This document shows positions 2,966 to 46,972 of a DNA stretch of 49,198 bases, piece after piece. The DNA lies in NCBI GenBank assembly GCA_041642635.1, contig JBEPWB010000001.1, positions 1-49,198 on the forward strand, read 5' to 3'. The position numbers were made by a program, and so were the translations under genes. The notes below the pieces were generated by a model. That model was not told where the DNA came from and did no database searches. It was given only the letters and a program-made list of their open reading frames with translations. Positions within the stretch are counted from its first letter, which is position 1. Each line of letters begins with the position of its first letter. Source of the DNA: a bacterium (GTDB taxonomy: Bacteria > Patescibacteriota > Gracilibacteria > BD1-5 > UBA6164).

Positions 2966-3316
2966 ATGAAAAATAGAGTTTTTTTAGCAAACCCAAAGTT
3001 TATAGACGAAAATAACCTTAGCGAAAGTGCAAAATCTGATCGATATAACAAACTAAAGCAAAGAATAAGAAGAAAGTCTGTTACCAATGATCCAAAAAAA
3101 AACATAGGTGTGAGATTTTTCTTCGCCAAACCGCTAATTCAAAACCAAGGACCTTTTGAATTCACAGTTAATATAAATGGATTCCGACTAATTATTGATG
3201 AAAATAATAAAGAAATTGGTTTTGAGGCATATTTAACATCTAAACTTGCAAGAAAAAACTATAACCTAATAGTTATAAAGGAAAATTTTATAATGAATAT
3301 AATTTTTCCAGAATAA
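2966..3316 (+). CDS. Small basic hypothetical protein, tandem paralog A (116 aa)
   Basis: Strong SD (GGAAAGGAGA) 7 nt before the ATG. Shares the block E-x-x-NEIGFEA-x-L-x-x-K...L-x-V-x-K-[ED]-NF with the next gene. Confidence 0.6.
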   Translation: MKNRVFLANPKFIDENNLSESAKSDRYNKLKQRIRRKSVTNDPKKNIGVRFFFAKPLIQNQGPFEFTVNINGFRLIIDENNKEIGFEAYLTSKLARKNYNLIVIKENFIMNIIFPE

Positions 3317-3927: not shown

Positions 3928-4338
3928 ATGAAAACATACGTCAAAACATACGAAGAAATACATGAATTATCAATAAAATCAAAGAAAAAGTACTCATGAA
4001 ATTTTGAACAAGAACTACAAAAAATTATAGAATCTTCTGAAGAAGTTATTAGAAGTGAAATAATTCCAAAATATAGTGTTGAGTATACTGAATTTTGAAA
4101 TTATACAGTAAAGATAAAAATAAATGATAAAACTAAAATGATAAACAAACTTATAGTTTGTAATTTTAATTATAAAATAAATGATGTTAAGTTTTGATAT
4201 ATTAATCCTGAGTTTTTATCAACTGAAAAATGACAAAAAACAAGAAAATATCCTTTATGAAAATTTAGTATAGATGATACAGATAAAATAATGCAAGATT
4301 TTATAATTAAATTAGTTGATATAATAGAAGAGTTTTAA
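3928..4338 (+). CDS. Hypothetical protein, 136 aa
   Basis: ATG to TAA ORF, continuous under code 25 (5 internal TGA). No recognisable motif. Confidence 0.5.
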
Positions 4339-5628: not shown

Positions 5629-5792
5629 TTTATTAATTTGATATTAAATATATATTAAACATATTACCCAGAATTAATAAAGCTACAAATAAAAAATAAA
5701 AAACATTTAATTTTTATAATCTAATATATTTATATTAACAACTTAATTTATTACTAAATATACTGCTGGTCGAACTAAATTTTGACAACAAA

Positions 5793-41890: not shown

Positions 41891-43363
41891 ATGGAACAAG
41901 TTGGAATAAAGAAAAATGATATTTTAGAAAATATTTTGATAGAAAAACTAGTTTTTGGTGGGAAATGATTTGCTAGATTAACTCACGAAAACCCAGATTT
42001 GGACGGAAGAGTTATTTTTGTAACTGGATGAGCAATTCCTTGAACTGTTGCAAATCTTAGAGTTTTAAAAAAGAAAAAAGCTTTTTTGGAAACTCAAATA
42101 GTTGATATAGTAAAAAAATCCCCTATAGAAGTAGAGCACAAAACGAATAAATATTGAATGTCAGGTGGTTGGAAATGGATAAATATTCCCTACAATGAAC
42201 AACTAAAAATAAAGCAAGAGCAAGTAAAAGAAGCTTTTAAACATGTAGAAAAATATCAAGAGGATTTGAATTTTTTAGATATAGAATGATCACCATTAGA
42301 AGATTGATACAGAAACAAAGTAGAGTTTAGTTTTGGTAAATATATTTCTCATAAAGACGATATTTGAGAACATTTTAACCTTGGTTTTCACAAACAATGA
42401 GAATTTTCAAAAATTCAAGATTTTGAAGGTGCACCTTTGATTGATGAGTTACAAAATAAAATTTTTAGAGAAATAAAAAAATTCTCAAAAACAGTTGGTT
42501 TACCTGTTTATGACCAAATGAGACAAGAATGATTTTTTAGACATTTATTAATAAGAAGAACTCATTTTGGAGATGAAATGATGATTTTATTATCGTTTAA
42601 TCCAGAATATTTTGATAAAAATACAAAACTAAACAAACAAGAAAAATTAGAAATAATAAAAGAATTTTTTGTAAAATTACAAGAAAAATATCCAGTTATA
42701 AAATCAGTTTATTTTTCTCATAATCCTAATAAAGCTGATGTTGCAATCGGAGATTTGGAACTAATTATTGGTAAAAAAACAATTACAGAAAAAATTCTTG
42801 GATTAAATTTTGAAATTTCTCCAACTTCATTTTTTCAAACAAACAGTACTTGAGCAGAAAAACTATATTCTATGGTTTTAGATTTTGCAAAAAAAGAAAA
42901 ATTAAATGAACAAATAGTTCTTGATTTATATGGATGAACATGAACAATTTGAATGATATTTGCTAATGCTTGAGCAAAACACGTAACAAGTGTAGAATTA
43001 GTAACTTCTGCAAGTAAGGATTGAGAAAAAAATGCAAAATTGAACTCTCTTGAAAATATTGATTTTTATAATGCAAAGGTAGAAGAATTTTTGTGAGAAT
43101 ATTTAGAAAAATGAAAAAAAGCAGATTTATTAATAATTGATCCGCCAAGAGCAGGAATGCATCCAGATGCTTTGCCAAATATTTTGAAATTTTGAACTGA
43201 TCAAATAATTTACGTGAGTTGTAATCCTGCAACTCTGGCTAGAGATTTGGAGTATGTTCTACAAAACAGTGATTACAAAATAGAAAAAATCCAGGCAATG
43301 GATATGTTTCCACACACAAATCATATAGAAATTGTAACAAGCTTAATAAGACAAAAAAAGTAG
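41891..43363 (+). CDS. rlmD: 23S rRNA (uracil-5)-methyltransferase, RlmD/RumA (TrmA family), 490 aa
   Basis: TRAM-like N-terminus. [18 protein letters not shown] motif [33 protein letters not shown]. Confidence 0.88.
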
Positions 43364-43386
43364 TATTTTAAAAAATACTACTTTTT
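43355..43386. terminator. Bidirectional terminator (rlmD / recX), overlapping both stops
   Basis: AAAAAGTAGTATTTT-aa-AAAATACTACTTTTT. Confidence 0.7.
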
Positions 43387-43847
43387 ATTTCATCATAACT
43401 AAATCATTTCATCATTAATTTTTGAATTAACTTTGATTTGTATTCATGTTCATTTTTATAATTTTTTATCTTGTGTTTTATTTTTTCATATTCTTTCAAT
43501 ATTGCTTCTTCTTCTCATTCCAAAAAAAATTCTTCCAAATATTTATCTATCAATTCTTTTGGTTCTTGTCTTTCAAAAAGTTTTTGTTTGATATAAAGTT
43601 TTGATTTTCATCTTGATTTATAACTTCTAATTTTAGAAATAATAACTTGTTCTTCATCAATTATAGAAGACATTTTTTCATCAAAAATATAATTTATTTC
43701 TTTTTCTCAAATACCTCAATATTTTTTTCAGTTTTCGCTATTTGGTCAAAATTTTTCTAATAATTTTCTTTCTAATTTTTTCTTAGAAGGAAAATATTTT
43801 AGATAATACCAGATTGCATAGTCTATGATTTTTTGTGAGATTTCCAT
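43368..43847 (-). CDS. recX: RecX-like regulatory protein, 159 aa
   Basis: Helical repeats of the type A..YL....S..EL..KL. Lies downstream of recJ. Modest similarity by eye only. Confidence 0.55.
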
Positions 43848-43919: not shown

Positions 43920-43922
43920 GAA

Positions 43923-44041
43923 GTCTTTCTCCTTACTTTTATAATTAAAAGTAACAAAACTTTTAGGGGTTTTCGAACTAGCTAGTAAATATTTGTTGCT
44001 AAAGAAAAGTAATCACTATCTCAACCCCTAAGACCCCTTCT
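43923..44041. ncRNA. Copy A of a structured ~120 nt element (candidate ncRNA or DNA-level site; strand unresolved)
   Basis: Hairpin TTACTTTT-ataatt-AAAAGTAA, then a 9 bp stem TTAGGGGTT...AACCCCTAA closing a ~45 nt AU-rich insert, then GACCCC. GC-enriched relative to its surroundings. Confidence 0.45.
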
Positions 44042-44133
44042 ACACTTCGATAATTAATTTTAAAGTTTATTTTGAAATTAATAAAAAAATTTTCTAATTT
44101 TTTTATATGAATTTTAATTTATTACTTCTATTA

Positions 44134-44262
44134 GAAAAGATGGGGTTTCAGGGGGTGAGACCGATAGTAGCCAGCTTTTAGTAAAGAAAAAATATAGCCA
44201 GCTGAAATTCGAACCCCCTGAGACTTTTGTTACTTTTGGTCACAAAAGTAAGGAGAGAAACT
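44134..44262. ncRNA. Copy B of the same element in inverted orientation
   Basis: The reverse complement reads TTACTTTT-gtgacc-AAAAGTAA, then a 9 bp stem TCAGGGGGT...ACCCCCTGA, then AACCCC. Stem differences relative to copy A are compensatory. Confidence 0.45.
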
Positions 44263-44356
44263 TTAATTATAAAAGTAAGAGACAGAATTCATATAAAAAG
44301 TAAATATAAAATATAATATAAAAAATTAAAACTAAAAATATAATTTTTCTATTTTT

Positions 44357-46006
44357 TTATAAAACAATATCCACCACCTTTAACATCAAATTTTTCTTTC
44401 CCATCCAAGAATCTTCGCTAATATCAAAAACAAGACTTGGTTTTGTTTTACTTCTTTTTATGGCTTCAAAATAATCTCACATAAAAAAAGCAAAAATTTT
44501 AAATCAATGTTTTGTCGTAAATCTTAGGTGATCTCTTCATTTTCAGATAAAATCTAGTTTGTCATAATCAAGATTTTCTACCATAAAAAGTGGTTTTTCA
44601 TTCCCTATTCAAAAAGGCTTGTATTTGTTAACTTCTTTTAAAAAATTAAAACCTAATTCTTCTAGTTTTATAACTTTATCAACTTTTATTTGTTTTTTAT
44701 GTTTTGAAAAATCTTTTTTGTTTAATTCATTAATTATTTTTGTCTTGAATTCCCCAAATTTTTCTTTTTTGATAGAAAAACCTGCAGCTTGTTGATGTCA
44801 TCCATAAGCGATAAAATAATCTTTGAATAAATCTAGACTTTCGATTATTGAGTGATATTCTGGACTTCTACAACTTGCAACTAATTTATCTCACTCATCT
44901 TTTAAACAAATACAAGGCTTGTAAAATTGTTCTGTAATTCTTCAAGCAACAATTCAAATTATTCAATGTTCAATAGCTGGAGAAATATAAAACAAAATAT
45001 TATCTTCTTTGTTTACTTTATTTAAAGCATCAAAGGAAAATTCTTTTGTTAAATATTTTCTCTCTTCGTTTAATTTTTCTATTTCACTAATAGTTCTATC
45101 AATTGTATTAGAATTATTTAGTATAAGATTTACAGCCTTGTAAGCGCTATCCATTCTACCAGCTGCATTTAACCTTGGTCAAATAGTAAAACCAAATAAA
45201 TCAGCGTCCAAGTCATCATTTATTTTGTCTTCTAATAATTTTCTGATTCAAAGACTTCTAGATTTTTTGATTTGCTTTAATCATTCCATAACTATAAGTC
45301 TGTTTTCTCAAGTCAACCTCATGCAGTCTGCAACAGTACCTATTGCAGCAATATCAACAGTTTCCCTAATATATTTTTTGGCTTCATCTTCTGAGAAAAA
45401 TTCATAACTCAAAGCTTGGATAAGCTTAAAAGCAACTCAAGCTCAGGCTAAATTTTTGTAAATATATTCACAATCAGGTCTTTTTGGGTTAATTACAGCA
45501 ATTGCTTCTTTTGGAATAACTTCTGGAACAGAATGATGATCTGTAATAATTATATCAATTCATAATTTTTTTGCATATTCTACAACTTCAACATCACGAG
45601 TTCAGCAATCAACTGTTACAATCAAATCAACTCAAAGCTCTTTTAATTCATCAATAAAATATTTTTTTAATCAGTATCAATCTTTGACTCTATGAGGAAT
45701 TCTATAACTTGCATGCATTCAAATTTTTTTGAAAAAATGCATCACAATTGAAGTACTCGTAACTCAATCAACATCATAATCACCAAAAATCATAACTTTT
45801 TCTTTTTTGGCGTGAGCTTGTTTTATTCTCTCAACTGCCTTATCCATATCAATTAATAAATATGGGTCATGCAAATCATCAAGACTCGATTCTGTAAAAA
45901 ATTCTCCAGAAGAAAATCTTGCAGAAATAATTTCATCAATTTTTTTATTTAAAGTAGCTTTATCAAATTTTACAAGATTTCATTTTACACTTAATTTTTC
46001 TAACAT
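44357..46006 (-). CDS. recJ: Single-stranded-DNA-specific exonuclease RecJ, 549 aa
   Basis: DHH motifs IFGDYDVDGVTS, TVDCG, IITDHH. DHHA1 GGHQQAAGFSI. IGPRLNAAGRM. Confidence 0.9.
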
Positions 46007-46050: not shown

Positions 46051-46084
46051 AAAAAATAACTAATTTTTAATTAGTTATTTTTTT
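46051..46084. terminator. Hairpin terminator downstream of the EAL gene, overlapping its stop codon
   Basis: AAAAAATAACTAATT-ttt-AATTAGTTATTTTTT. Confidence 0.65.
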
Positions 46085-46883
46085 AAATTTGATGTATTTT
46101 TTGATCTCAAATAATATAATTTCATTGAAAATAATCAAATCATAAATTTTTTGCAAATTCAAAAATTTCTTCAGATTCAATATGTTCTGCAACTAATTTT
46201 ATATCTTTTGACTGCAAAAATTTTAAATAATTTTCAAAATCTAAATAATCTTGTAATGAAAAATTTCAAAACTCAAACTCATTATCTACATTTTCAAATA
46301 AAAATTTATGTGAATAAAACATTTTTCTCAAATAAGTTCAATCAATTTTTACAGTTGAAATTTTTATATTATTTTGTAACAAATAATCTATTCTATCTGA
46401 ATTTGAATATCAAGAATATAAATCATCAATTGAAAGACCAAAACCAATTCTTATTAGAATTTTTAATTTTAATAAGAATACATCTGAAAAATTATCTTCA
46501 ATAAAATTAGTTTCTAATAATTCAAAATTTATATTTTCAGGATTAATTTTATAAAAAAGTAATAATCAATCAATAAATATTAAAAAATCTTCTTCCATAA
46601 TATCATATACGTCTAAATTTATATTAACTTTTTCTCAAGTTTTTAGTGACTTTTCAAATGCTCAAAGTGAAATCCTCTTAAACAATCAAAATGTAGATTT
46701 TGTACTATTTAATTTTTCCAAAAAATCTAAATGATCTATTCATCAACACTCTAATCTAAAAAGTATTTCATTTGAAAAAAAATCCATATTTTTATCAACA
46801 ATAGGTTCAAACTTTGCATAAAAATTATTTCAGACATTATATTTTATTTGATCGTCTACCTCGTATTTTTCATTAATCCCCAA
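46083..46883 (-). CDS. Stand-alone EAL-domain protein (putative c-di-GMP phosphodiesterase), 266 aa
   Basis: FEPIVD, EILFRLE, ELLETNF, SIDDLYSGYS, KIDGTYL, VAEHIESEE, DYFQGNYI. Probable TTG start at 46883 (first start-type codon after the upstream TAA). Confidence 0.72.
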
Positions 46884-46972
46884 AACAAAATAATTAAATA
46901 ATAATACTAAACTATATTAAAACATAAAAATATTGTATTGTAAAATATTTTTTTGCAACTTTAAATAATTTT

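Follow-up and report, generated by a model that had tools for sequence, protein, structure and literature searches.

Between recX and recJ of the Gracilibacteria contig JBEPWB010000001.1, in a stretch of 49,198 nucleotides analysed here as a whole (the window), lies a non-coding feature of about 340 bp (43923-44262) composed of two inverted modules. These modules belong to a real, non-random, covarying, multi-copy and mosaic family of intergenic repeats, one pair of which resides at this locus. The family is one of the class Gracilibacteria, with a compact form in some gut Clostridia, and it is not specific to recJ or recX. We think it somewhat probable that the feature represents a single resident copy of a non-coding repeat, dispersed and mosaic, resembling miniature inverted-repeat transposable elements (MITEs) and bacterial interspersed mosaic elements (BIMEs), organised as an outward promoter/terminator-like cassette.

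The module pair between recJ and recX

The gap between the recX start at 43847 and the recJ stop at 44357 measures 509 nt. It holds two inverted modules of about 105-110 nt (43933-44037 and 44142-44251), which display GC contents of 30% (module A) and 42% (module B) in a window of 24% GC. Reading of the sequence and a repeat search recovered the inverted duplication reported in a preliminary description of this DNA, with each feature described there in its place, the CAAAA(C/G) linker and the C-runs included; the repeat search gave inverted arms of 52 nt (43921-72 / 44212-63) that are 81% complementary. The parts of the pair are as follows.

43920..43932, minus strand: outer flank of module A, plus-strand sequence GAAGTCTTTCTCC, which lengthens the inverted repeat
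43933..44037, minus strand: module A, subtype T1, from sequence reading and the family covariance model R1 (95.8 bits, E 1e-17 to 1e-18); 5' to 3' on the minus strand it consists of GGGGUC, the stem 5' arm UUAGGGGUU, GAGAUAGUGAUUAC with a variable insert, UAGUUCGAA, the stem 3' arm AACCCCUAA, AAGUUUUG and the AU hairpin UUACUUUU-AAUUAU-AAAAGUAA
43933-54, hairpin of module A as it reads on the plus strand: TTACTTTT (43933-40), loop ATAATT, AAAAGTAA (43947-54), then CAAAAC
43963..43971, minus strand: main stem P2 of module A, plus-strand sequence TTAGGGGTT, pairing with 44023-44031 (AACCCCTAA)
44023..44031, minus strand: partner arm of P2 in module A, adjoining the first G-run at 44032-44037 (GGGGTC on the minus strand, GACCCC on the plus strand)
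44038..44141, no strand: AT-rich spacer common to both back-to-back modules, with no canonical sigma-70 promoter in a promoter scan
44038-44, minus strand, and 44132-38, plus strand: boxes TGTAGAA and TAGAAAA at the spacer ends, just upstream of the G-runs
44142..44251, plus strand: module B, a divergent subtype whose nearest relative is a Peribacter-like copy (locus L043), R1 84.4 bits, E 3e-15 to 3e-16; 5' to 3' it consists of GGGGUU, the stem 5' arm UCAGGGGGU (44148-56), GAGAC with an insert, AUUCGA, the stem 3' arm ACCCCCUGA (44213-21), GACUUUUG (44222-29) and the hairpin UUACUUUUG-GUCA-CAAAAGUAA (44230-51)
44148-56 and 44213-21 (plus coordinates): stem of module B, which reads TCAGGGGGT/ACCCCCTGA on the minus strand; the hairpin lies at 44230-44251
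44252..44279, plus strand: outer flank of module B, holding GGAGAGAAACUUU and an extra half-hairpin TTTAATTATAAAAGTAAG (44262-79)

Two stem positions differ between copies A and B (T/C and T/G), and each is compensated on the partner arm, as had been claimed from the sequence beforehand. What had been described as a partial third copy of the hairpin is the half-hairpin at 44262-79, whose complementarity to 43932-49 is 100%; family members typically possess extra whole or half hairpins at their outer ends. The diagnostic pattern of the family occurs twice in the window, against 0.00 expected in the shuffled window, and the family covariance model scores the two modules at 95.8 and 84.4 bits (E of about 1e-18 and 3e-16), the third-best match reaching 15.9 bits. 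Even with the covariance-model filters switched off, no module beyond the pair was found in the 49-kb window. Module A aligns with 18 further T1 copies from other genomes.

A closing helix may be formed in module A by GGGGUCUU (5') with AAGACUUC (8 bp, p = 0.05) and in module B by GGGGUUUC (5') with GAAACUUU (9 bp, p = 0.015), with two compensated differences between the copies; it is part of the minimum free energy (MFE) structure of module A and would complete a three-way junction in both window copies. As a general feature of the family it was rejected, being found in only about 5 of 60 members, though it is convincing in the window pair.

An open reading frame (ORF) of 24 codons, MNFNLLLLLEKMGFQGVRPIVASF (44109-44182, plus strand), begins in the spacer and enters module B; it is probably fortuitous, equivalent frames not being kept in other subtypes. 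A small ORF or minigene as the identity of the modules was likewise dismissed: in subtypes B, T2 and T3 the G-run is preceded by an ATG, in T1 it is not, and the frames are not conserved.

Family members, stem covariation and dispersal

A strict pattern scan of the species representatives in the Genome Taxonomy Database (GTDB; one genome per species) revealed 87 stretches, about 60 of them in metagenome-assembled genomes (MAGs) of the class Gracilibacteria or Peribacter-like ones, with 5-11 hit regions per MAG (LH_M95 11, UBA5194 7, and STC_119, STE_112 and SO_2017_GW1_68 5 each). The motif UUCGAA was required by the search pattern, and some members found by the covariance model are without it. 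This model (R1) was built from 55 copies (alignment A1); over 600 kb of related loci, cmsearch detected about 105 modules at E<1e-4, and relatives without the pattern gave none. The pattern also matches a region just upstream of tRNA genes in Prevotella (L031 7523-7564, L039, L052 and L073), made up of an AAAAAG-containing hairpin followed by GGGTTCGAAG and devoid of the family stem; these matches appear unrelated to the family.

Over the 55 copies, the 9 bp of P2 are 98.8% paired, and double changes are seen in seven of the nine pairs. The covariation score was reached by none of 500 shuffles, and slid controls collapsed, which bears out the earlier view that the two window copies reflect selection on structure and not a recent duplication. 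Counted once per distinct haplotype and read outward from the spacer, P2 displays 8 G·U pairs, 1 A·C pair and 6 mismatches of other kinds; on the opposite strand the G·U pairs would read A·C. In subtype T3 a path from U-A through U·G (6 copies) to C-G (4 copies) can be followed. Subtype T2 folds better on the outward strand by 5-12 kcal/mol, and module B has an MFE of -44.3 kcal/mol (z = -4.5) on the plus strand versus -35.9 on the minus strand. P2 is thus constrained as a folded single strand, apparently the one reading outward from the spacer, and because both the G·U asymmetry and the folding favour that strand, the functional strands would be the minus strand for A and the plus strand for B. 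The opposite-sense reading offered in the preliminary description, with the G-runs first and the hairpin last, is this favoured strand. The G·U-rich asymmetry points to a putative constraint at the RNA level.

Back-to-back pairs are the usual arrangement, 28 of them having been found with spacers of 43-242 nt. Each unit of about 60-110 nt reveals, in this order, a G-run, a G/C-rich stem, a U-tract (CUUUUG) and at least one AU-rich hairpin (NUACUUUUG-loop-CAAAAGUAN), and in the composite the hairpins form the inverted ends while the two modules surround the AT-rich spacer. A common core of about 60 nt is revealed by the short partner modules (X and Y as well as those of Clostridia): GGG(R)UU is followed by a G/C stem-loop that covaries, by RAYUUUUG and by the AU hairpin NUACUUUUG-loop-CAAAAGUAN. 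The T-type modules of the window correspond to this core enlarged by about 50 nt inserted into the stem loop, the stem of the window copies enclosing 51-56 nt that end in a T-loop-like UUCGAA. Composites are bounded by ATATGTACTTTTG...CAAAAGTACATAT, often with added whole or half hairpins. T3-rich genomes carry a further repeated hairpin (TTGTCATTCCCGAGTAGTCGGGAATC and variants) beyond the modules, at a distance of about 35-60 nt; it faces inward, and a U-rich stretch comes after it (L076 ~3995-4030, L113 ~1525-1560, L106 3272-3300 and L107 ~3215-3245).

Subtypes T1, T2, T3, X and Y are swappable at one orthologous site. At one such site in six species the composite is always there and its subtypes differ (T1, T2 or the short X form), and at the recJ-recX site the module combinations are T1/X, T2/X, T1/T2 or B/T1. 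The flanks of the insert are kept across species whose RecJ is only about 80% identical, and the 5' domain of the X type is conserved across genomes. Presence/absence polymorphism was found at the one orthologous site examined for it, that of recJ-recX. In the closest relative, L001, with a RecJ 87% identical to that of the window, recJ and recX are separated by 12 nt (5651-5662) without an element; the gap is also 12 nt in L002 and 26 nt in L008 (1838-1864). The sister clade L003, L004, L041 and L057 (RecJ about 80% identical) carries the element at the same place, while more distant relatives have a gap of about 0.5-1.5 kb with small unrelated ORFs (L009 5653-6686, L016 5659-6145, L017 694-1264 and L019 722-2254). 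The junction of the two genes is a hot spot of variation.

Every copy analysed is intergenic. Orientation relative to the neighbouring genes is unbiased (about 14 same, about 19 opposite), all four arrangements of flanking genes are present in roughly ordinary proportions, and the adjacent ORFs cluster as families of housekeeping orthologues. At module-dense loci, genes between the elements resemble restriction endonuclease or Vsr-type repair genes as judged by eye (L095 3433-4188, minus; L060 4028-4783, minus; L030 2642-3055, plus), which suggests that the repeats cluster in variable islands.

The same plan is present in gut Clostridia MAGs, which use the standard code, again beside housekeeping genes. 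The compact Clostridia form reads GGGGG-AUUCGAAA-CCCCC, and an end segment of 35 nt is nearly identical between Clostridia copies and the Gracilibacteria X form. The right-hand Clostridia module measures about 190 nt (GCGATAGCGGCG...CAAAAGTAC) and shows covarying helices, many G·U pairs and no Rfam match; it was located on the plus strand in L056 (6886-7072), L047 (4223-4420), L093 (6783-6974), L101 (3398-3587) and L064 (5068-5254) and on the minus strand in L098 (4722-4912) and L035 (2421-2617). A recurrent compact symmetric element of the same plan was also noticed in GC-rich Alphaproteobacteria (Acetobacteraceae/Rhodospirillales, GC 63-70%; L033 2077-2210, L048, L054, L071, L077, L081, L087, L088 and L108), where an AT-rich hairpin (GTTCTTTTTTGAAAAAAAGAAC) and CAAAAAAC precede a single GC-rich stem-loop, after which come GTCTTTTTG and another AT-rich hairpin in inverted orientation; it looks like a hairpin-flanked bidirectional terminator.

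Possible roles and identities of the element

If the constrained strand is taken as RNA, each module would correspond either to a small RNA transcribed outward or to the far-side end of an RNA made by read-through; this RNA would fold and end at the stem and U-tract, and the pair would constitute a self-contained promoter/terminator-like cassette independent of orientation. Copies would spread and be homogenised by transposition and/or by recombination with each other. Here, the cassette would come between recX and recJ, two genes that adjoin in the nearest relative and are presumably co-transcribed there. In short members, the terminator scan recognised P2 and the U-tract on the outward strand as an intrinsic terminator (3 versus 0.4 expected, and 2 versus 0.5). 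Some 17-20 nt upstream of the G-run show subtype-specific conservation (..AAAAC.TTTAGAAATAT, ..CTTCTAGAAA.ATCCA and ..TTTTTCGATATGTATCAAT) and contain a -10-like box (TAGAAAT, TATCAAT) 3-7 nt upstream of the G-run, which may, judged from its sequence, have promoter activity.

Several observations weigh against such a mobile cassette. The terminator scan flags neither window module despite their stem and U-tract, because the stem encloses the insert of 51-56 nt, a conserved -35 was not found across the upstream boxes of the family, and the sigma-70 scan of the window spacer was negative. There is no depletion between divergent genes (5 of about 47 copies) and hence no sign that the copies are sited where the host needs a terminator. 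A role beyond termination is suggested by the conserved insert sequences (GAGAUAGUGAUUAC and UAGUUCGAA) and by the long structured 5' domains that some modules possess. Since hairpins of single-stranded DNA tolerate G·T pairs too, the strand asymmetry is no strict proof of RNA. As to mobility, the flanks of 25 composites revealed no consistent target-site duplication, AT-rich flanks and variable outer modules blurring the ends, and in the 8-10-kb loci neither an autonomous parent nor a transposase sharing the ends was found: the surroundings of the roughly 60 copies, out to about 3-4 kb, hold no transposase, and no transposase-like ORF recurs. Mobility is therefore read only from the dispersal of the copies and from one empty site.

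The modules could instead be genuine, independently transcribed small RNA (sRNA) genes of a multi-copy family, divergent from the spacer and acting in trans, each with a functional 5' or insert domain and a terminator, targeting mRNAs or proteins, with dispersal as a secondary matter. The constrained outward strand, the conserved -10-like box, the terminator-like 3' core, the insert flanks kept between species with so diverged a RecJ and the long covarying 5' domains, including the conserved one of the X type and that of the ~190-nt Clostridia module with a TATAAAT-like box 7 nt upstream, all agree with this; we nevertheless hold it to be possible but not probable, given that no -35 is conserved and no promoter was predicted in the window spacer, that the shortest modules would give RNAs of about 40-60 nt with little beyond the terminator hairpin, that subtypes are freely interchanged at one site and that the pair is missing from the recJ-recX site of the nearest relative. 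An undescribed class of small structured RNAs, encoded as divergent pairs in an inverted-repeat cassette that moved between Candidate Phyla Radiation (CPR) Gracilibacteria and gut Clostridia, we regard as unlikely; such RNAs, among them the ~190-nt Clostridia form and the one with the T-loop-like Gracilibacteria insert, might possibly have a function of their own, either in controlling or guiding the mobility of the element or in regulation in trans. Transcription could also be incidental to a purely DNA-level, non-autonomous transposable element of the MITE or REPIN (paired repetitive extragenic palindromic, REP, sequences) kind, whose hairpins and stems would be single-stranded or duplex recognition structures for a DDE transposase or an HUH/RAYT-like Y1 transposase. 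The copies are indeed dispersed, with inverted ends (ATATGTACTTTTG...CAAAAGTACATAT) and one to three subterminal hairpins or half-sites at both ends, polymorphic in presence, shuffled as variants among sites and genomes without following orthology, and alike at their ends in two phyla; the hairpins are moreover flanked by NTAC/GTAN, which we take to resemble the cleavage contexts of IS200/IS605 and REP elements. The missing transposase and target-site duplications, the lack of matches in viral contigs, phages and plasmids, and the persistence of copies at orthologous sites across species count against it, and a duplex protein-binding site would leave unexplained the tolerance of G·U and not A·C, on opposite strands in the two halves, as well as the U-tract and the terminator look. 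We therefore judge this alternative quite unlikely, although, among the candidates raised at the outset, a MITE-like DNA-level element comes nearest to the overall nature of the feature; of the marks then named for a plain MITE, many copies were found, and target-site duplications were not shown in the 25 composites.

Least credible is a locus-specific cis-regulatory leader of recX, i.e., a riboswitch or attenuator with competing G-runs and a sequestered Shine-Dalgarno sequence, which had also been put forward. Module A does read toward recX, in every subtype two G-runs could compete for the single C-run, and AAGGAGA abuts the hairpin in both window copies. That motif, however, is not conserved in the family and has no start codon after it at a usable distance. 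The recX start codon lies 85 nt past the hairpin of module A, with a promoter-like site of its own in between, module B points away from recX, no Rfam riboswitch matches, and recX of the closest relative, adjacent to recJ, does without the element. The presence of the same modules at dozens of unrelated intergenic sites in either orientation contradicts a riboswitch or attenuator specific to recX, which we consider very improbable.

Searches for known RNAs were negative, in line with what had been judged by eye for tRNA, transfer-messenger RNA (tmRNA), signal recognition particle (SRP) RNA, RNase P and 6S RNA. At the gathering threshold, Rfam 15 reported only three ordinary tRNAs in the whole window, all elsewhere; at E<=10 the region gave noise only, and on 20 more family loci nothing was reported at the elements. 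ARAGORN found no match at the window region or at the family loci. A tRNA, tmRNA or permuted tRNA, suggested by GUUCGAAUC, was thus rejected, no cloverleaf being drawable, and 5S, SRP, RNase P and 6S RNAs, known ribozymes and riboswitches were dismissed for want of an Rfam match even at E<=10. Further candidates were tried and abandoned: a DNA uptake sequence (no over-representation of the short motif TACTTTTG was seen in the rest of the window), an internal guide of the bridge-RNA or omega-RNA kind (neither in similarity nor in complementarity does the variable insert match its own flank better than those of other copies, 7.32 versus 7.36 nt), a type I toxin-antitoxin pair (inverted repeats transcribed divergently give similar, not complementary, RNAs) and an origin from phages or plasmids (viral contigs gave no match in either of two pattern scans, and neither phages nor plasmids did in blastn).

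Genomic setting and comparison with known systems

Long ORFs in the window require UGA to be read as sense: with table 11 they are fragmented, and with code 4/25 they span the window. Conserved glycines are coded by UGA, e.g., in the S-adenosylmethionine motif LDLYGGTGTIG of a TrmA/RlmD-like methyltransferase (41891-43363, plus strand), and the genetic code was accordingly set to table 25 (UGA = Gly). RecJ homologues carry the organism name Candidatus Gracilibacteria. An EAL-domain protein (cyclic di-GMP phosphodiesterase-type domain; 46083-46916, minus strand) lies directly upstream of recJ, and the same order is seen in L001, L003 and L004. The features next to the element are listed here.

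43368..43847, minus strand: recX, 160 aa with code 25, Pfam RecX_HTH3, from ORF and translation; downstream neighbour
43897->43870, minus strand: promoter-like site TTAAAA-16-TATTAT from the promoter scan, between the element and the recX start codon
44357..46006, minus strand: recJ, 549 aa with code 25, Pfam DHH, DHHA1 and RecJ_OB; upstream neighbour

No description of the family was found in Rfam 15 or in the literature on repeats, MITEs and structured RNAs of Gracilibacteria, CPR or Patescibacteria. To our knowledge, structured repeats and non-coding RNAs of the CPR are almost undescribed, with very few sRNAs known in these genomes. The family provides a ready covariance model for annotation and accounts for many of the GC-rich intergenic islands in Gracilibacteria genomes of about 24% GC; operons can be split by such insertions, as presumably recJ-recX here, and the feature belongs with repeat families and not with regulators of DNA-repair genes. 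The near-identical 35-nt end segment in another phylum hints at horizontal spread or at conserved recognising machinery. Transcription, if it takes place, would put the modules among the first RNA families with multiple copies to be described for this lineage.

Like the REP/BIME/REPIN elements of Enterobacteria and Pseudomonas, the family is intergenic, multi-copy and mosaic, with inverted hairpin modules, swappable subtypes and linker motifs, and with folding upon transcription. REP/BIME elements are known to terminate transcription or stabilise mRNA, and they can be retained at orthologous sites. Their sequence, however, is unrelated, and the modules described here are far larger (60-110 nt) and combine a G/C stem and U-tract with separate AU hairpins; copies per genome apparently number tens, not hundreds, and the family spans two phyla. 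With Correia/NEMIS of Neisseria, BOX of Streptococcus pneumoniae and ERIC of Enterobacteria it shares a non-coding, dispersed nature, a size of about 150-450 bp, inverted ends and modularity (boxA-B-C). MITEs of this type can carry outward promoters or terminators, their RNA folding matters, and their insertions are polymorphic among close genomes. Here, unlike in those elements, no target-site duplication or parent insertion sequence (IS) or transposase was found in the composites and loci examined, an outward module pair around a spacer takes the place of one long hairpin, and the stems covary strongly between subtypes.

Single parts of the element recall other systems. The family core resembles intrinsic terminators in that its G/C-rich stem is directly followed by a U-rich tract, and short members are recognised as such on the outward strand, whereas the window stem closes a branched insert and goes unflagged, and the orientation is outward from the spacer instead of facing the neighbouring genes. 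GUUCGAA(U/A)C beside a G/C stem resembles the T-loop of a tRNA T-arm, but there is no cloverleaf, and ARAGORN and the Rfam models for tRNA and tmRNA gave no match. Finally, as with IS10 RNA-OUT and the end stem-loops of IS200, a small structured RNA would be read outward from an inverted-repeat end; in those elements the pairing partner is a transposase mRNA, which the present family lacks, and here a module is located at both ends.

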